A stretch of 64,000 nucleotides of DNA from Candidatus Moraniibacteriota bacterium (GTDB taxonomy: Bacteria; Patescibacteriota; Minisyncoccia; Moranbacterales; UBA1568): the NCBI GenBank assembly GCA_013334575.1, contig JAAXXG010000002.1:69377-133376 (forward strand), read 5' to 3'. The notes below the pieces were generated by a model. The model made no database searches. It was not told the origin of the DNA and saw nothing but the letters and a program-made list of their open reading frames with translations. The translations under genes were made by a program, and so were the position numbers. Positions 2,259 to 50,008 of this stretch are shown piece by piece. How positions within the stretch are numbered: the first letter of the stretch is position 1; each line of letters starts with the position of its first letter.

Positions 2259-3506
2259 TTACGCCTTCTGGGCCAGGTACGACGGAAGATCCGAAAGCGG
2301 GACGTCGACAGCCGAGTCTTCCGTCCGGCGCTTCACCTCGGCCGTGCCGGATTCCGCGGCACGCTTCCCGATGACGACACGGTACGGGATACCGAGAAGA
2401 TCGCTCTCCGCGAACTTCTCGCCCGCTCGCAGGTCGCGATCGTCGTAGAGGACCTCGATTCCCGCTTCCGAGAAGGCGCGATAGGTCTCGTCGGCGAGGT
2501 CGTCCGCCCCGAGGGAAAGCAGGTGCACCCGGAAGGGTGCGACCGACCCCGGCCACACGAGCCCCTTTTCGTCGGCGAACAGTTCGGCTATGACTCCCAT
2601 CAGGCGACTGATCCCGATGCCGTAGCACCCCATGACGATCGACTGATTCTCCCCCTTCTCGTCGTTGAACGACACTCCCAGCGCGTCGGTATATTTCGAT
2701 TCCAGATGGAACGTATTTCCGACTTCGACCGCCTTTTTCGGGACGAGAGCGCTCCGGTCGAGTCCGAGTTTCTCGAGGTTCTCGTCCGTCAGTATCTCCT
2801 CGTTCACGGCAATTCCCTTCGATTCGTCGAGATAGATGACGTCCTCCCCGACCTCGGTCAGGGTCTGGAACTCGTCGCTGAACCGCGAAGTGAAGATCCC
2901 TCCGTCGGCATGCGTGCGGTACGTGATATCGCCGAGACCGAGCCGCCCGTAGACCCTGAAATAGGCCTCGACGATCCTTTCGTATTCGCGCTCGTGCTGT
3001 TCCTGGTCCCGACTGAACGAATACATGTCCTTCATCAGGAACTCGCGCCCCCGAAGCAGCCCGCTCTTCGCCCGCAGTTCGTTCCTGAACTTGTTCTGGA
3101 TCTGATAGACGGAAAAAGGAAAATCCCTGTATGAGCTGACGTACTCGCCTATCGCATCGACGATCGGTTCCTCGTGGGTCAGTCCGACACCGAGTTCGGC
3201 GCCGCTTACCAGTCTCGTTTTGAACCAGTTATCGACTTTGGAATCGTCCCACCGGTCGGTCTTCTCCCAGATATCCTTCGGCTGCAGCGTCGTCATCATC
3301 AGTTCCTGTCCGCCGACGGCGTTCATTTCCTCGCGCACGATCGCCTTGATCTTCTCGAGGACGCGCAACCCGAGCGGCAGGTACGCATATACCCCCGCCA
3401 TCTCCTTATGGATGAATCCAGCCCGGATGAGCAGCTGCGCGTTCCGGCTTTCCTCGTCCTTCGGCGTCTCCCGTCTCGCTTTCGTGAACAACTGGCTCTG
3501 TCGCAT
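2259..3506 (-). CDS. proS: prolyl-tRNA synthetase, short bacterial-type form lacking the editing insertion
   Basis: MRQSQLFTKARRETPKDEESRNAQLLIRAGFIHK, then KDMYSFS and GCYGIGISRL motifs. About 416 aa, shorter than the INS-containing ProRS. Confidence 0.85.
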   Translation of the reverse strand: MRQSQLFTKARRETPKDEESRNAQLLIRAGFIHKEMAGVYAYLPLGLRVLEKIKAIVREEMNAVGGQELMMTTLQPKDIWEKTDRWDDSKVDNWFKTRLVSGAELGVGLTHEEPIVDAIGEYVSSYRDFPFSVYQIQNKFRNELRAKSGLLRGREFLMKDMYSFSRDQEQHEREYERIVEAYFRVYGRLGLGDITYRTHADGGIFTSRFSDEFQTLTEVGEDVIYLDESKGIAVNEEILTDENLEKLGLDRSALVPKKAVEVGNTFHLESKYTDALGVSFNDEKGENQSIVMGCYGIGISRLMGVIAELFADEKGLVWPGSVAPFRVHLLSLGADDLADETYRAFSEAGIEVLYDDRDLRAGEKFAESDLLGIPYRVVIGKRAAESGTAEVKRRTEDSAVDVPLSDLPSYLAQKA

Positions 3507-3607
3507 AGTCGAAGCGGTTAGTATCGCGTCCATGATATCCCGGATACGCCGCTCCGTCAAAGCAAAACCGGCCCGACAAGCGGACCGGAATGCGGGACGC
3601 TCGCCCC

Positions 3608-4825
3608 CTAGAACCGGACCGGAATCGCAAGTTCCTTTCCATCCCGAAGAACGAGAAGCGATGCCTCGTCCCCCTTCGAATGCCCGCCGATCGCGACCGA
3701 AAGCGGATTGTCCAGATTGATTTCCTTCCCGTCCACCGCGATAACGATATCCCCGAAACGGAGCCCGGCCTTCGCAGCCGGAGATCCGGCGAGAACCGAA
3801 AGTCCGGTCTTTCCCGACGGCGAATAGATAAGCGCGCCGCGATCGCGGCCGGAAGCCCCATCCCCGACCGCCGAGGCCTTCGTGAGCGTAAGGTAATACG
3901 CGCCAAGCGAGGCGCGATCCGACAGTTTTCCGGCGACGGCAAGCGAAAGAGTGTCTCGGACGACGTTCGAAGGAAGCAGGAAATGCCGTTCCTTCCCGTC
4001 GAAGACGACGCTCCCGAACAGTCCGACCATCTCGCCGCGAAAATTCACCGCCGGACCGCCAAGATAGGGGCTGGGATCCGCTATGTCCGCTTCAAAAACG
4101 CCCTCCCATTTCTCGGACGAGGCCACGGTCTTCCCGGACAGGTTGAACAGCTTGTTCCGGTTCGAAAGCACGCCGATCGAAAACCGGTTCTGATATTCCT
4201 CGTACGCGTTCCCGATGGCGACGAGCTTCTTTCCCGGTGCCGAATCGTCGGAATTCGCGAGTGCGATCGCCGGAAATCCCGTTCCGTCGATACGAAGGAA
4301 CGAGAGGTTCGTCAGACGGTCGTACCCGAGAAACTTCGCTTCGTGATCGGAGCCGTCATAGAGAAGCACATGGAAAGACGATCCGGGATACGGAACCTGA
4401 GCGGACTCCGAGGGGACGTCGTCCCGCTGGGAAGGGTCGCCGTACGTCGCGACGACGCCGTCGTTCGTAAGGATGACACCGGTACGGCTGCGCGACTCAC
4501 GGACGGACGAAGAAGTGCCGTTCGGGAGTGATATGACGATATTGACCACCGCCGTCGCGGGCTGCGAAACGATCGTCTCCACGGAATCGTCTTCGCGGAC
4601 GACCATCTGTTCCTTGCGCTCGATGACCATGGTGCTCCCGGCGACGTCCCGAAACAGCTCCATGCGCGACAGTCCCGGAAACGACGCGACCAGGGACGGC
4701 ACGACGTGTCCGCGAAAATAGACACCGCCCGATCCGCCGATCACGAACACCGAGACGACGAACGCGAGCCATTTCGCGAGCGTCTTCAATTTCTCCTTCC
4801 CGAACATGTTCCGTATCTTTCCCAT
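3608..4825 (-). CDS. HtrA/DegP-like trypsin-fold protein with PDZ domain, predicted catalytically inactive
   Basis: N-terminal TM helix, an S1C-like core (VAIGNAYEE, YDRLTNLSFLRIDG) and a C-terminal PDZ-like part (GLRFGDIVIAVDGKEI). Triad positions read TNDGVV (His>Gly), NLSFLRI (Asp>Asn) and PYLGGP (Ser>Leu). Confidence 0.6.
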   Translation of the reverse strand: MGKIRNMFGKEKLKTLAKWLAFVVSVFVIGGSGGVYFRGHVVPSLVASFPGLSRMELFRDVAGSTMVIERKEQMVVREDDSVETIVSQPATAVVNIVISLPNGTSSSVRESRSRTGVILTNDGVVATYGDPSQRDDVPSESAQVPYPGSSFHVLLYDGSDHEAKFLGYDRLTNLSFLRIDGTGFPAIALANSDDSAPGKKLVAIGNAYEEYQNRFSIGVLSNRNKLFNLSGKTVASSEKWEGVFEADIADPSPYLGGPAVNFRGEMVGLFGSVVFDGKERHFLLPSNVVRDTLSLAVAGKLSDRASLGAYYLTLTKASAVGDGASGRDRGALIYSPSGKTGLSVLAGSPAAKAGLRFGDIVIAVDGKEINLDNPLSVAIGGHSKGDEASLLVLRDGKELAIPVRF

Positions 4826-4909
4826 AGTCGGAGATATTCTCTTATGATCCGTGAAGCACACCATCCGGAATACCATACCGGAAGCGTTCCGGCAAGGGTC
4901 CGATGCCGT

Positions 4910-5725
4910 TCAGACCTGCAGCGTCCACGGCGACGTCGCGAGCAGGAGCGCGATAAGCAGGAACGACAGGCCGAGGTACCAGAGTGTCCGCTTCCGGGAA
5001 ATGTCTCCGGAAAACAGCGAGTTCGCCATGTCCCAAAGGATATAGAACGCCAGCAGCGACGCGGCTCCGGTCACGAGGTACCCGAACGGCCAAAAAGACA
5101 CGATCCAGGCGATTTCGCCGATTCCGAAAGCGATGATCGAGGAATAAAGCGCCACCCGACTCCGGTCTCCGGGAAGCGAAAGGGAGAGCGTCTGATAGGC
5201 AGCGCCGAACGAACCCAGCGCGAACGAGACGACGAGCGATGCGAGCGGGACGGCAAAGTTCAGATAAAACCCGAAGGCTGCCGCGAAAAAGAAGAACAAG
5301 GCGGACAGCATCGAGACCGCGAGAAAGGTCGCCGCGGTACGGTCCTTGGGCGCGAACCGCATACGGTAGAGCCCCAGGAACGCGACGTAATAGACGCCGG
5401 TCGCGATAACGGAGAATGCGAGTTTCTCCGACGGATCGTCGACGAGCGACAGGAGCGACGGGGCCGAGAACGATATAAGCAGCGGAACGAAGCCGTTCCG
5501 ATACCGTTTCGTTATCCTTTTCGCCGATACGAGCGACAGGACCGAGAGGAACAGGATCGAAAAGACGTATCCGACCCAGAACGAATCGTATTCCCGCGCC
5601 GCAACGAACTGCATTCCGAGGAAGAACGCGACCGACCAGAAAAAGACGGTGAAGTGGAAAATCATATCGTTTCGGAGATATCGGTAGCGTAGCAGGGAGC
5701 CATGAAGGAAGCAAGCCGATAACAA
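4910..5725 (-). CDS. polytopic integral membrane protein, unknown function
   Basis: 271-aa ORF with about 7 hydrophobic helices. No recognisable motifs. Confidence 0.45.
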   Translation of the reverse strand: MLSACFLHGSLLRYRYLRNDMIFHFTVFFWSVAFFLGMQFVAAREYDSFWVGYVFSILFLSVLSLVSAKRITKRYRNGFVPLLISFSAPSLLSLVDDPSEKLAFSVIATGVYYVAFLGLYRMRFAPKDRTAATFLAVSMLSALFFFFAAAFGFYLNFAVPLASLVVSFALGSFGAAYQTLSLSLPGDRSRVALYSSIIAFGIGEIAWIVSFWPFGYLVTGAASLLAFYILWDMANSLFSGDISRKRTLWYLGLSFLLIALLLATSPWTLQV

Positions 5726-5834
5726 TAGATCGAATCGAACACGGCAAACAAAACGGCGTCATCAGGGCATAACAAAAGGCTCATGCGACCGAAGTCACAT
5801 GAGCCAACACCTATTCGGTATCTTCTCTTCGTCA

Positions 5835-6662
5835 TCAGGCGAATGCCTTCTTTATCCCCCGCACCTCCCTCAGAAGATCTTTCCTTTCCGGAAGAAATCG
5901 TCGGATAACATTCTCGGCATCGGAAAGATAGAGGTTTTCGATATTCATACGTACCACCTCGATGACGACATCGGGGTGATTCGCGCCCAGAGCTGCGGCC
6001 TGATCGTAATGCCGATCGTACAAGAGCTTCCGTAAGTAGACGCGAATATATGCCTCATTCGGCTCGTCATATTCTCTCGCAAGTTCGATCTTCCGCACCA
6101 AGCCGACTTCCTCGTCACGCAACACCTCCTTTGCCAGCTCACGTTTCTGATCCTCGGTAATCGTGAACTTCGTACTCTTCCGAAGAGGATCCCAGTAAGA
6201 ATCCGCCTGAAGAAGGTTTTTATATATCAGTTTCTCGATATCGATGCGGACTTTCGCATCACTGATATATTTTCCGACCCAGTCGAGTTCCGCCGGTGTT
6301 ACGATCATACGTCTCCGTCTCCGTTCTTCGCAGAAATCCCGGAAGCTTTCGAACATTTCCCCATCATTCGTTAAAGATAGGGCATCGGGGCAAAGCGCAA
6401 TGATACTATCCAGCACCTCCAGCTTTTGAAACTCAAAAGCCCCCTTTCTCGAAACGATATACAGGAACGCTTCCTTGGTCAGTTCCCGAAGTTTGCCTCC
6501 GCTCAGGTCATTCTTAAGTACCTTTAAGCGAATCCACGGGTTACGAACGTTTTCGATCAGTGACATGATTCCCCCTTGCGATTTGAGTCCGTCGACTTGT
6601 TTGTTGGCAAAGAAAAGCCCTTGACGGCTTACTACTTTCATGAGCAGCATTCCCGATGCCAT
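5835..6662 (-). CDS. hypothetical protein
   Basis: 275-aa ORF with coding-like composition. Preceded by an AT-rich intergenic region 6663-6860. Confidence 0.4.
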   Translation of the reverse strand: MASGMLLMKVVSRQGLFFANKQVDGLKSQGGIMSLIENVRNPWIRLKVLKNDLSGGKLRELTKEAFLYIVSRKGAFEFQKLEVLDSIIALCPDALSLTNDGEMFESFRDFCEERRRRRMIVTPAELDWVGKYISDAKVRIDIEKLIYKNLLQADSYWDPLRKSTKFTITEDQKRELAKEVLRDEEVGLVRKIELAREYDEPNEAYIRVYLRKLLYDRHYDQAAALGANHPDVVIEVVRMNIENLYLSDAENVIRRFLPERKDLLREVRGIKKAFA

Positions 6663-6857
6663 AAATTCTGATATCGCAAATACTGCCCAAGAAATAACAG
6701 GACAATCTTAACGAACAAGATAAATATTTTAGCATTATTTATAATTTTAGTCAATTACTTGCACATTCATAGAAAAATCAGGGCTTGTACAAGCCCTGAT
6801 TTTTCAGAAAGCGCATTTCGGAAAAATTGCCGCTGTACACCAACCGACAACAATCAT

Positions 6858-9503
6858 TTATTTATCTGCTGTTTTCTGTCTCTTCTTCGCCGCCCCGAAC
6901 GAGAACCCTTCCTTTCCGGCATCCACCTCGATGCCCGCGGCCGGAACCTTCCCTTCGATGACCTCGAGCGCCAGCGGGTCGAGGATATCGCCCTGAATCA
7001 CGCGTCGCAGCGGCCGCGCCCCATAGAACGGGTCGAACCCCTTCTCGGCAAGACGCTTGCGGGCCGCATCCGTGAACGTGACGGCGATCTCCTTCGCAGC
7101 GAGCCGTTCGGCCACCTTCGCGAGCTCGAGATCCACGATCTTCCGGATGATATCGCGTCCGAGCGGATGGAAGATGACGATCTCATCGATACGGTTGAGG
7201 AACTCCGGACGGAAGGTTTCCCGGAGGCTCGACATCACCTTGGTACGGATCGCCTCCTCGGAAAGCTCCTCCTCTCCCTTCTTCGGTTTCTCCTCGCTGA
7301 ACCCGAGCCGCTCCGCCCTCGTAAGGGTCTCGGACCCGACATTCGACGTCATGATGATGACCGTATTCTTGAACGATACCGTCCGCCCCTTCGCATCGGT
7401 CAGTCGTCCGTCGTCGAGGATCTGCAGCAGGATATTGAACACGTCGGGATGCGCCTTCTCGATCTCGTCGAAGAGGATCACGGCATACGGCCGGCGGCGG
7501 ACCTTCTCGGTGAGCTGCCCGCCCTCGTCGTAACCGACGTATCCCGGCGGCGACCCGATGAGCTTCGCGGTCGAATGGGATTCCATGTACTCGCTCATGT
7601 CCACGCGCACGAGCGCCCGCTCGTCGTCGAACAGGAATCCGGCAAGCGCCTTCGCGAGTTCGGTCTTACCGACGCCCGTCGTGCCCAGAAAGATGAAGGA
7701 GCCGATGGGGCGCCCCTCCTCGGAAAGTCCGGCCCGAGACCGACGAATGGCGTTCGAAACCGCCTGGATCGCCTCGTCCTGCCCCACGACACGTCTCTCG
7801 AGTTCCCGCTCCATATGAACGAGCTTCTTCGCCTCGGTCTCGAGCATCTTGGAGACGGGAACGCCGGTCCACTTGGATACGACCGCCGCGACGTCTTCCT
7901 CGGTGATCTCCTCCTTGAGGATGGAGCCCGCCTGCTGAAGCTTCGTCAGTTTCTTCTCCTCGGCCGCGAGCGCCTTCTGGATCTCGGGAATCTTCCCGTA
8001 CCGGATCTCGGCGACGCGGTCGAGTTCCCCGCGTCGCTCGGCCATATCGGCTTCCGATTTCAGCCGATCGATATCGGCCTTGTGCGCCCGCAGGCCCGCG
8101 ATCAGATTCCGCTCCCCCTTCCACTGGAGCGAGAGCTTACCCGACTTCTCGCGCAGGTCCGCAAGTTCGCGGTCGAGTTCCGCGACCTTCTTCCCGGACT
8201 TCTCGTCCGAGTCCTTTTCGAGAGCGCGCTTCTCGATCTCCATCCGGCGGATGTTCCGTTCAAGCGTATCGAGTTCGGTCGGCAGCGAATCGATCTCCAT
8301 GCGGCGCAGCGATGCGGCCTCGTCCACGAGGTCGATCGCCTTGTCCGGCAGGAACCGATCGGAAATATACCGCCGGGAAAGCCGCACCGCCGCGACGATC
8401 GCGTCGTCCGTAATGCGGACCCCATGATGCAACTCGTACTTCTCCTTGATGCCGCGCAGGATCGCGATCGCGTCCTCCTCGGACGGTTCGGATACGAAGA
8501 CCGGCTGAAACCGCCGCTCGAACGCCGCGTCCTTCTCGATGTATTTCTGGTATTCCTTGAGGGTCGTGGCGCCGATCGTCCGCAGCTTTCCGCGAGCCAA
8601 AGCGGGTTTGAGCATGTTCGACGCGTCGAGCGTGCCCTCGGTCGCGCCCGCTCCGACGAGCGTATGGATCTCGTCGATGAACAGGATGAACCGGTCGGCG
8701 GAGCGTTCCACCTCCTTCAGGACCGCCTTCAGGCGCTCCTCAAACTCGCCGCGGAACTTAGCACCCGCCAGAAGCGCCCCGAGGTCGAGCGAGATGATCT
8801 CGCGGCCCGTGAGATTCTCCGGCACGTCGCCCGAGACGATCCGCTGCGCGAGCCCCTCGGCGATCGCCGTCTTGCCGGTCCCGGCCTCACCGATCAGGAC
8901 CGGATTGTTCTTCGTCCGGCGCGACAGGACCTGCATCACCCGGCGGATCTCCTCGTCGCGGCCGATAACCGGATCGAGTTTCTCCTCGCGAGCGAGCTTG
9001 GTCAGGTTCACCGCATACTTGTCGAGCGCCTGATACGACGCTTCCGGATTGTCGCTCTCGACACGCGCACCGCCGCGTATTCCCGAGAGCGCCCGGAGAA
9101 CCTTGTCCCGGTCGGCACCGGAACGTTCCAATATCTTTTTCGCCTCGCTCTCGACCGACAGGAGTCCGAGCAGCAGGTGCTCGGTCGAGACGAACGAGTC
9201 TCCCATCGCTTTCATCTCCTTCTCGGCCGCATCGAAGGTCTTCGCGAGCGCCGGCGTAAGATAGAGTTGCGGACCGGTCGACCCCTTCGGGAACGCATCG
9301 ATCACCGAAAGCGTCGCGCCCTTGAGCGCGGAGAGGTCCGCTCCGGCCTGCGAGAGCGCGACCGGAACGACCGAATCCTCCTGAAGGAGAAGCGCGTAGA
9401 GCAGGTGCTCCGGACGAAACTCGGCGTTCCCCCGCGAAAGCGCGTTCTCCTGCGCGTTACGCAGCGCCTCCTGGCTCTTCTGCGTGAAATTGCTGATATT
9501 CAT
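6858..9503 (-). CDS. clpB: ATP-dependent chaperone ClpB
   Basis: 881 aa. Clp N-domain, two AAA+ modules ([25 protein letters not shown]) and a long middle coiled-coil typical of ClpB. Confidence 0.9.
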
Positions 9504-9617
9504 AGCCGTGAAGAATCAAGGATTACGAACCGGGAACGAAAGCCTCCATTCCGTATGATTCTCGCTTCCCTTTTTCCCGATCCTTCTTCGGCTCCATTCT
9601 ATACCGAAAAACAAAAA

Positions 9618-9644
9618 TTAGCAATCTCATATAGAGAGTGCTAA
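9618..9644 (-). promoter_or_regulatory. CIRCE-like inverted repeat (HrcA operator) upstream of clpB
   Basis: TTAGCAATC-N9-GAGTGCTAA about 115 bp upstream of the clpB start. One mismatch to the CIRCE consensus TTAGCACTC-N9-GAGTGCTAA. Confidence 0.7.
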
Positions 9645-48556: not shown

Positions 48557-50008
48557 TCAGAAATTGCCGCCTCCGCCTGCGCCTGCGGTTTCACCTCCGC
48601 CAAAGGAGATGCCGCTGTCCGGGGTTGAACTCGAATAAATCGGACTCGGACTATATGGCGAAGAAGGACTCGCGACATATGGGTGGCCACCCTCATCGGA
48701 CCGGCTTGACCTGTGCGATACGCCGGACGAAGCATGACTTCCTGACGGCCGTGCGGAGAACGACCGCTGCGGCACGTATATCGACTTCGGAGCAATCTCG
48801 TCGACTGCGGATTTCCTGATCGACCGTGCTTCGTCGTTCAGCAGTTCAAGCAGCAGCGCCGCCTGTAAGAAGTCGAACTGCTTCGGACTCGGCTCTCTCA
48901 ACAGATCCCGACGGAGACTTTCATACGCCTGCCGCTGATCTTCACAGCGATCGCGAAGACGCTGTGAGACACCTGGCTTTCGGACCGCGTCTTCGGCCCG
49001 ATTGATGGCGACACCCGCAGCATCAAGCTTCGCATCGATACCGGATACCGTCTGACGAGCTCCGCGATATACCCTCATCAGCCCGGACAGTTGTGCGATA
49101 AGAGAAACGGCTGCATATCTCGCACCGCTCCAGCCGGTCTCATCAGAACGCTCACCGATACCGGACAACAATCCGTTGAATTTCGATGCTATGTCCGCAG
49201 CCTTCTGACGGGCTTCCATAATGGCAGCATCGGTGACGTACTGACCGGCATTGTCGAGTTGCCGGTTGAAAGAGTCCATCTCCCGATTGAAATCAGCCTT
49301 GAGTTGCTCCACCGCCGCACGACGGCTCCTGGCCCTGCGAGACCGAGCGAACAGATACCGGATTCCGACCCCGATTCCGACTATAGCGAGTACGACGAGA
49401 AACGCCAACAACACGTCTTCGGCTTTCGCATCTGATTGAGCTTTGCCGGTCGCTTCAACCCGCTCTATGCTCTGCTGATGTTCCGTGGAGATCTTCGGCC
49501 CGAGGACCGTCATGATGTCCCGCGACATCTGTTCAAGCGCCGGACCGATATCACCAGCTCGCAGACTACTCGCCAGCAACGGCTTCGCACGGTTGAAGAT
49601 TCTCCCGCATTCGGCATCCGTCAACTCCGTTTCAACCCCCTTTCCGGTCGTAATCCTGACTTTCCGAGGATTGGTGCAGACCGTTATCAGGACACCGTAG
49701 TCGTCACCTTTCTGTCCGATGCCGGTCTCGTGAAAGACGTCGACTGAATACTGCTCGATCGTCGCCCTTCCCGCAAAGTCCTTCGTCGTAAGCACGACGA
49801 TCTGGACCTTCGAATCCTTCTCATACCCCGAGAGAAGCTGATTCAAGTCCGACTTTGACGATTCGGAAATGATACCGGCGAGGTCCGTAATGCGCTCCGT
49901 GAGTTTCGGAAGTTCTTCACCGTTCCCTTCAGCCGCGAATGCCGTTCGGCACCCGTGAGAGAGAAGGAGCAGCAAGAACACCGCCAGAACTTTCATGATT
50001 TTCCTCAT
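48557..50008 (-). CDS. TPM-domain (TLP18.3/Psb32/YgcG-like) membrane protein with Gly-rich C-terminus
   Basis: Signal peptide, TPM-like KVQIVVLTTKDF ... DDYGVLITV ... RKVRITTGKGVE, a TM helix, a long charged linker and a GGGETAGAGGGGNF tail. Confidence 0.6.
   Translation of the reverse strand: MRKIMKVLAVFLLLLLSHGCRTAFAAEGNGEELPKLTERITDLAGIISESSKSDLNQLLSGYEKDSKVQIVVLTTKDFAGRATIEQYSVDVFHETGIGQKGDDYGVLITVCTNPRKVRITTGKGVETELTDAECGRIFNRAKPLLASSLRAGDIGPALEQMSRDIMTVLGPKISTEHQQSIERVEATGKAQSDAKAEDVLLAFLVVLAIVGIGVGIRYLFARSRRARSRRAAVEQLKADFNREMDSFNRQLDNAGQYVTDAAIMEARQKAADIASKFNGLLSGIGERSDETGWSGARYAAVSLIAQLSGLMRVYRGARQTVSGIDAKLDAAGVAINRAEDAVRKPGVSQRLRDRCEDQRQAYESLRRDLLREPSPKQFDFLQAALLLELLNDEARSIRKSAVDEIAPKSIYVPQRSFSARPSGSHASSGVSHRSSRSDEGGHPYVASPSSPYSPSPIYSSSTPDSGISFGGGETAGAGGGGNF

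Follow-up and report, generated by a model that had tools for sequence, protein, structure and literature searches.

A triad-less HtrA homolog encoded beside the membrane protein DUF5656 in Moranbacteria

Introduction

What job is left to an HtrA-type serine protease that has lost its whole catalytic triad? The question is raised by a gene in a 64-kb stretch of contig JAAXXG010000002.1 (the whole stretch of DNA analyzed, called the window below) from an uncultured member of the Moranbacteria, a lineage of the candidate phyla radiation (CPR)/Patescibacteria. The gene lies at window positions 3608-4825 on the minus strand and has 405 codons and a stop; its product, here called pseudo-HtrA, had been read in an initial annotation, made from the sequence alone, as a membrane-anchored HtrA/DegP-like pseudoprotease. 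Inactive homologs of serine proteases are known as a class, and a 2008 survey counted 42 proteins without catalytic residues among 966 prokaryotic serine-protease homologs (PMC2605481). Pseudo-HtrA falls within this general class, but the survey predates CPR genomes and gives no account of the clade, the DUF5656 partner or the synteny described here. We found that pseudo-HtrA is kept throughout its lineage and almost always beside a gene for DUF5656, a predicted membrane protein, and for this reason it very probably has a job other than cutting.

Results

An HtrA fold without a catalytic triad

A longer open reading frame (ORF) reaches position 4876; the homologs and the NCBI record begin at MGKIRNM. 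The product is 100% identical to NTW45756.1 (P0001 in our set), encoded on a 134,881-bp contig and recorded as "MAG: serine protease [Candidatus Moranbacteria bacterium]", MAG standing for metagenome-assembled genome. Pfam recognized Trypsin_2 (E 1.6e-15), PDZ_2 (E 6.5e-12) and PDZ_6 (E 1.9e-8), and no further domain within the 405 residues. An AlphaFold2 (AF2) model built from 52 family members (mean pLDDT 80, pTM 0.72) has two beta-barrel halves and a PDZ domain, preceded by a long helix at the N-terminus, and its best Foldseek matches in the PDB were DegQ, MucD, DegP and mycobacterial HtrA (E 1e-22 to 1e-19). With hhalign, the family aligned to the active HtrAs of Moranbacteria at a probability of 100% (E 3.9e-49). 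These results bear out the HtrA/DegP-like core and PDZ domain of the initial annotation, all of whose quoted motifs were found, and structure prediction, one of the checks it had proposed, returned the expected HtrA fold. The NCBIfam models for HtrA, DegP, DegQ and DegS all matched pseudo-HtrA, and all far under their curated cut-offs: TIGR02037 reached 107.2 bits against 416.2, below the curated family threshold, and the DegS model 64 bits against 423. Of the features that define the HtrA/Do family (MEROPS S1C), the chymotrypsin-type fold and at least one C-terminal PDZ domain are thus present and the His-Asp-Ser triad is absent.

At the N-terminus, a Lys/Arg-rich stretch, MGKIRNMFGKEKLK, precedes a hydrophobic helix, LAKWLAFVVSVFVIGGSGGVYF, from which we infer a single-pass membrane anchor with its N-terminus inside and its C-terminus outside. 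The helix carries a GGxGG motif in which G30 is invariant across the family alignment and G31, G33 and G34 are conserved at 90% or more. At the other end of the protein, the carboxylate-binding loop of the PDZ domain is kept (R304..L307-G308-x-Y310) and aligns to the 'YLGV' of active paralogs. The coordinates of these and other features are collected in Table 1.

Table 1. Features of the pseudo-HtrA locus, in window coordinates.
Feature	Coordinates	Strand	Basis or remark
CDS, triad-less HtrA homolog, 405 aa + stop	3608..4825	-	Identity to NTW45756.1
N-terminal transmembrane (TM) helix, residues 16-37, preceded by Lys/Arg-rich MGKIRNMFGKEKLK	4715..4780	-	AF2 helix 10-48
Near-invariant GGxGG motif in TM helix	4724-4738	-	Conserved columns
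Chymotrypsin-fold HtrA-type domain without triad, residues 81-297	3935..4585	-	Pfam Trypsin_2, Foldseek, hhalign
G123 of invariant TNDG	4457..4459	-	Aligns to conserved Gly of '(S/T)xDG' before TNxHV
D130 in 'ATYGD', equivalent of catalytic His; column variable (E/D/N/T...)	4436..4438	-	Profile alignments
N173 (NLSFLRI), equivalent of catalytic Asp	4307..4309	-	Profile alignments
L3-like loop FNLSGKTVASSEKWEGV, residues 227-243	4097..4147	-	Near-invariant columns; predicted flexible
L255, equivalent of nucleophile Ser; L1 loop PYLGGP replaces GNSGGP	4061..4063	-	Profile alignments
PDZ domain, residues 300-405	3611..3928	-	Pfam PDZ_2/PDZ_6; conserved columns
DUF5656 gene, 251 aa + stop, near-obligate upstream neighbor	4910..5665	-	Pfam PF18900
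DUF5656 C-terminal tail TSPWTLQV-COOH, predicted extracytoplasmic, candidate PDZ ligand	4913..4936	-	Tail conservation
271-aa ORF, lineage-specific, between ClpB and DUF5656	5835-6650	-	Also in L001; only this lineage
ClpB disaggregase, conserved upstream neighbor of the pair	6858..9503	-	Pfam
Prolyl-tRNA synthetase (proS), conserved downstream neighbor	2259..3560	-	Synteny marker
Terminator-like hairpin, 12-bp stem + T-run, upstream of DUF5656, parting the pair from the 271-aa gene	5778..5805	-	
Terminator-like hairpin, 8-bp GC-rich stem + T-run, after pseudo-HtrA stop, before proS	3568..3588	-	

The initial annotation had placed the substituted triad at the Gly of TNDG, the Asn of NLSFLRI and the Leu of PYLGGP. 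Profile alignments put the equivalents of His, Asp and Ser at D130, N173 and L255, which upholds the Asn and the Leu and leaves the Gly seven residues away from the true His position. Three independent alignments agree on D130. The family profile (A1), set against DegP-type structures, pairs 'GvlltnDGlvvtysekll' with 'GFIISNDGYILTNNHVV'; a MAFFT alignment of pseudo-HtrA and 149 representatives at 50% identity, which include many active enzymes, sets TNDG followed by VVATYGD over (S/T)xDG followed by LILTNKH; and hhalign, with a profile of 31 active Moranbacteria HtrAs as its partner, pairs T127-Y128-G129-D130 with T-N-K-H. The N173 and L255 positions agree between the DegP-structure profile, the active-paralog profile and hhalign. 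Because alignment shifts one position yet recovers no His, Asp or Ser, the overall claim of a fully substituted triad holds. Judged by its sequence, then, pseudo-HtrA is without a catalytic His, Asp or Ser at any triad position.

The same loss recurs in the closest database clusters, 120 in number and 48-100% identical to pseudo-HtrA, and is no sequencing accident. Over these homologs, the His-equivalent column holds E (60), D (23), N (15), T (6), M (3), A (3), G (2) and L (2), and His is absent from these counts, which cover 114 of the 120; the Asp-equivalent column holds N (94), D (14), G (7), E (3), S (1) and H (1), and the Ser-equivalent column V (75), I (26), L (15), S (3) and A (1). TNDG and the GGP of the L1 loop are invariant throughout.

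Could such a protein still cut peptides by a non-canonical apparatus, such as a Ser/Lys or Ser/Glu pairing within the SSEKWEG loop? This L3-like loop, FNLSGKTVASSEKWEG, lies beside the former active site and is nearly invariant across the family, though it is predicted to be flexible (pLDDT <50 at residues 231-241); within it the family never varies at N228, S236, E238 and E241, and hardly at S237 and K239. Set against this constraint, the conserved-column analysis found no invariant His, Cys or Lys in the family, and an aromatic and an aliphatic residue fill the former nucleophile pocket, F/Y at the position before the nucleophile site and V/I/L at the site itself; on these two grounds a cryptic catalytic site is unlikely. 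The two barrel halves are also under relaxed constraint relative to the active paralog (conservation 0.49/0.58 against 0.69/0.74), and we know of no chymotrypsin-fold enzyme that works by such a Ser/Lys or Ser/Glu pair. We therefore regard a surviving peptidase activity as very improbable.

An old duplicate under purifying selection

When the family profile was searched against 1.84 billion representative proteins, neither the TNxH nor the GNSGG motif stood in any of the top-scoring representatives. P0163, at 281 bits, was the first relative to carry both, and relatives of that kind dominate below about 225 bits. In a rough neighbor-joining tree of the 50%-identity representatives, the motif-less sequences form one large clade apart from the active HtrAs, and a few other motif-less lineages, some of which keep the nucleophile Ser, join the active side close to its base.

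Partial triads were seen in P0177, P0186, P0195, P0213 and P0239, for example with the Ser kept and the His replaced by S, E, Q or R. Their branching near the base of the active clade in this rough tree suggests that catalysis was lost repeatedly or stepwise in those lineages.

Our scan took one genome per GTDB species and yielded 188 stretches with relatives; the ORF is intact in these and in hundreds of metagenomic clusters. For 44 of the species both HtrA copies could be read from one locus, and over the same 946 genome pairs the mean pairwise identity was 51% for pseudo-HtrA against 56% for the active HtrA (r = 0.79), while the two copies inside one genome are only 24-32% identical. By these identities, pseudo-HtrA was duplicated long ago, is kept under strong purifying selection and is not decaying. 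A pseudogene in decay or an assembly error would account for the missing triad and for nothing more, and is ruled out by the intact ORFs, the near-equal identities of the two copies and the 43 invariant columns of the family alignment; a misaligned active protease is countered by the three alignments above, none of which gives a His, Asp or Ser at a triad position. We put the chance that any of these explanations holds at next to nothing.

The N-terminus and TM helix are much more conserved in pseudo-HtrA than in the active paralog (0.42 against 0.19). With its fold kept, its catalytic residues lost and purifying selection evident, the protein belongs to the class of HtrA pseudoproteases, and the initial annotation's picture of a membrane-anchored scaffold that would not hydrolyze peptides fits the retained PDZ domain and predicted N-terminal anchor well.

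A near-obligate neighbor and probable membrane partner

Synteny was read from the best 80 of the 188 loci, whose labels are almost all Moraniibacteriota or Moranbacteria. The order of genes, which is highly conserved, is TrwB/VirD4-like ATPase, DivIC, PpiC-type rotamase (PrsA-like), active HtrA, (ClpB), DUF5656, triad-less HtrA and prolyl-tRNA synthetase (ProRS). Among the 71 loci with enough flank, 69 have DUF5656 directly upstream of pseudo-HtrA on the same strand, with a median gap of 80 nt. This makes DUF5656, which the initial annotation had not remarked on, the most strictly kept neighbor. The pairing extends to divergent members of the triad-less clade: P0129, P0152, P0167 and P0171 all have a DUF5656 homolog immediately upstream (4/4; hidden Markov model (HMM) E 1e-45 to 1e-72), and ClpB precedes DUF5656 in the three of these loci that are long enough to tell.

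Many relatives (L008, L015, L017-L019 and many more) are titled 'uncultured Bdellovibrionales bacterium' and carry the Moranbacteria-type cluster with proteins 42-64% identical; the label of these third-party MAG records is probably wrong.

An active HtrA stands within the 10-kb upstream flank in 42 of 56 related species, and these neighboring HtrAs carry TNKHVV, D and GNSGGP, their triad motifs being intact. This raises the alternative that the main job of pseudo-HtrA is to regulate its active paralog, through mixed oligomers or allosterically in the manner of MamO and MamE, and that DUF5656 is incidental. HtrAs oligomerize through the protease domain, MamO provides a precedent, and the tree topologies of the two paralogs run parallel; the gene directly before DUF5656 is the active HtrA in 21 of 60 loci, ClpB filling that place in 32. 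Yet the adjacency of the active HtrA is looser than that of DUF5656, and four species (L031, L043, L046 and L048) keep the TrwB-DivIC-rotamase-(ClpB)-DUF5656-pseudo-HtrA block with the HtrA slot empty. The low identity between paralogs of one genome, given above, also counts against this alternative.

Nor did a search for an active paralog, which the initial annotation had proposed, succeed for this organism. Neither the family HMM run on six-frame ORFs nor tblastn with active HtrA found a second HtrA in the 64-kb window, and no active HtrA could be traced to this MAG, which may be incomplete: none of the 20 best active-HtrA clusters has an NTW accession, and two active-HtrA candidates came from samples other than Logan SRR11449211. 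In a relative whose pseudo-HtrA is 62% identical (P0023, MBP9751287.1), an active HtrA, MBP9751281.1, lies on the same contig six accession numbers off. Because DUF5656 is the tighter neighbor and the HtrA slot is empty in some genomes, we favor DUF5656 as an obligate partner over pure regulation of the paralog, which we think unlikely to be the main job.

What kind of protein is this partner? AF2, run with database homologs, predicts nine long membrane helices for DUF5656 (pLDDT 91). Lys/Arg-rich loops follow helices 2, 4, 6 and 8, so that by the positive-inside rule the predicted N-terminus would be inside and the C-terminus outside. Foldseek gave no significant PDB fold match (best E 0.23), NCBIfam and PADLOC gave no match, and we found no publication on DUF5656 function in the open-access literature.

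The predicted outward tail of DUF5656 is highly constrained. Its consensus is (S/T)(S/T)P-W-(R/H)-(I/M)-x-(V/A)-COOH, with a Trp at -4, at a fixed length to the end, in 157 of 158 distinct tails and a last residue of V, A, I or L in 148. Hydrophobic C-termini are known ligands of the PDZ domains of HtrAs: DegS binds the YxF tails of outer-membrane proteins (OMPs), and the PDZ domains of human HtrA1-3 bind ...W-V-COOH peptides. Given this preference and the retained carboxylate-binding loop, it is a natural hypothesis that the DUF5656 tail possibly docks on the PDZ domain of pseudo-HtrA.

The pairing of a dead HtrA domain with a polytopic membrane protein also parallels the architecture of MamO, and could be taken to mean that pseudo-HtrA serves a DUF5656 transporter as a metal- or ion-binding accessory, akin to the protease and TauE domains of MamO. 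Conserved acidic clusters (REDD, NSDD and SSEKWEG) would suit such a role. On the other side, the family has no conserved His pair, NSDD is a general HtrA motif, the NCBIfam MamO model (NF040961) gives pseudo-HtrA 18 bits against a cut-off of 800, and DUF5656 has no detectable similarity to a transporter or to a solved fold. An accessory of this kind seems to us highly unlikely.

Neighboring genes and other features of the window

The order in the window is ClpB, the 271-aa gene, DUF5656, pseudo-HtrA and ProRS. The 271-aa ORF matched nothing in Pfam or NCBIfam, and the PADLOC defense-system models matched neither it nor pseudo-HtrA nor DUF5656. The DUF5656/pseudo-HtrA pair is flanked by the two terminator-like hairpins and has no such hairpin between its genes. 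ProRS is not thought to be functionally tied to pseudo-HtrA.

Many relatives have, downstream of ProRS and 6-9 kb past pseudo-HtrA, another ClpB-like AAA+ gene that is shorter, at about 840 aa, and has no Clp_N match listed (18069-20591 in L002; also in L017, L031, L035 and others); the window ends sooner. Between positions 50000 and 54000 of the window, the GC content is 0.49-0.51 against about 0.60 elsewhere, and the ORFs there encode ordinary small enzymes (GNAT acetyltransferase, NUDIX, HAD hydrolase, dCTP deaminase-like). The whole 64 kb gave neither a tRNA gene nor an Rfam match above the gathering score. The window holds many long spurious antisense ORFs, such as 6759-9644 (+) opposite clpB, owing to the high GC content.

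Discussion

Which non-cutting job would suit this pair? We consider it reasonably probable that pseudo-HtrA serves, without catalysis, as a binding or adaptor module and acts in complex with DUF5656 in envelope proteostasis. The gene would have arisen by an old duplication of an HtrA in the same envelope-proteostasis block, which holds a PpiC/PrsA-like foldase, the active HtrA and ClpB. The copy would then have lost its His, Asp and Ser while the fold, the GGP of the L1 loop and the peptide-binding loop of the PDZ domain were kept. Held by a single N-in anchor, the dead chymotrypsin-fold domain and its one PDZ domain would face outward, and would form with the nine-helix DUF5656 a membrane complex whose contact may run through the unusually conserved GGxGG membrane helix. 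The PDZ domain may in addition clamp the fixed outward ...PW-R-I-x-V-COOH tail of DUF5656. Such a complex could bind unfolded or exported polypeptides, as a holdase or substrate trap, could tune the neighboring active HtrA, or could do both; the initial annotation had likewise put forward a chaperone, a substrate trap or a regulator of an active paralog as candidate roles.

Several observations weigh against this adaptor reading. The PDZ domain is slightly less conserved than in the active paralog (0.55 against 0.62), and across 69 pairs the covariation of DUF5656 tails with PDZ columns gave scattered mutual-information peaks that are confounded by phylogeny. Not one DUF5656-HtrA fusion occurs among 407 HtrA-like proteins, and in 9 of 57 loci the two genes stand more than 300 nt apart. 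Terminator-like sites are not enriched in the region, which has 7 of them where shuffles lead one to expect 9.2. Finally, the window lacks not only a second HtrA, as described above, but likewise the rotamase, DivIC and TrwB of the conserved block.

The closest functional precedent is MamO, an HtrA pseudoprotease that activates its active paralog MamE without catalysis and that relies on a polytopic TauE domain of its own (PMC4794232). MamO and LimO resemble pseudo-HtrA in that an HtrA-type fold was kept and catalysis lost in a duplicate that stands beside an active paralog and is retained under selection (PMC4794232), and MamO resembles it further in its functional coupling to a polytopic membrane module. 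There are also differences. MamO arose independently of the Patescibacteria clade; it retains a pseudo-triad of His, Asp and Thr and, on its surface, a di-His metal site, whereas the pseudo-HtrA family is without a conserved His; and its TauE domain is fused, whereas pseudo-HtrA has a single N-terminal TM helix and a PDZ domain, and its membrane partner is a separate gene. Model score, di-His site and fused TauE domain thus all place pseudo-HtrA outside the MamO family, and by analogy its own family plausibly works like MamO without being a member of that family.

Among active enzymes, DegP, DegQ and HtrA (Do, S1C) share the protease fold and PDZ domain and are the best matches in sequence and structure. 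They differ in that pseudo-HtrA has had all three triad residues replaced naturally and has one PDZ domain and a membrane anchor. Spiess et al. are said to have found in 1999 that DegP with an engineered Ser-to-Ala change (S210A) retains chaperone activity. DegS is the nearer parallel in layout, with an N-terminal membrane anchor and a single PDZ domain on the extracytoplasmic side. Its PDZ domain reportedly binds hydrophobic C-termini, a result credited to Walsh et al. in 2003, and for pseudo-HtrA the conserved hydrophobic end of DUF5656 suggests a similar contact between PDZ domain and tail. DegS is, however, an active site-1 protease that cleaves RseA, whereas pseudo-HtrA lacks the canonical catalytic residues; and the ligand of DegS is an OMP tail exposed by stress, whereas the ligand proposed for pseudo-HtrA is a constitutive neighbor protein.

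A more speculative idea, which we offer as doubtful, is that DUF5656, with its possibly new fold, and the dead HtrA might form a two-protein envelope-stress sensor, built from a pseudoenzyme, that has gone unrecognized and is specific to Moranbacteria-type CPR bacteria. The PDZ domain would clamp the DUF5656 tail, and unfolded envelope proteins would compete for binding to the PDZ domain or to the dead cleft, so gating DUF5656 or releasing or activating the HtrA/PrsA machinery.

Whatever the exact mechanism, what is known and what is new can be separated. Inactive serine-protease homologs as a class and MamO have been described before; the triad-less clade and its pairing with DUF5656 appear to be new, and open-access literature on DUF5656, on HtrA in Patescibacteria and on HtrA pseudoproteases or pseudoenzymes held no description of the clade. 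Bacterial HtrA pseudoproteases, represented by MamO, are very few, and the clade adds to them an independent example that retains its PDZ domain; public names such as "serine protease", "S1C family serine protease" and "serine protease Do" need correction for its members. The pairing provides a first functional handle on Pfam DUF5656, and docking of its tail on the PDZ domain is a concrete hypothesis that is testable in vitro with recombinant domains and peptides. CPR/Patescibacteria genomes are about 1 Mb in size and hold few dispensable genes. That such small genomes keep a second, triad-less HtrA copy, evolving almost as slowly as the active enzyme and paired with DUF5656, points to a non-catalytic envelope function, so far unstudied, in these episymbiotic bacteria.

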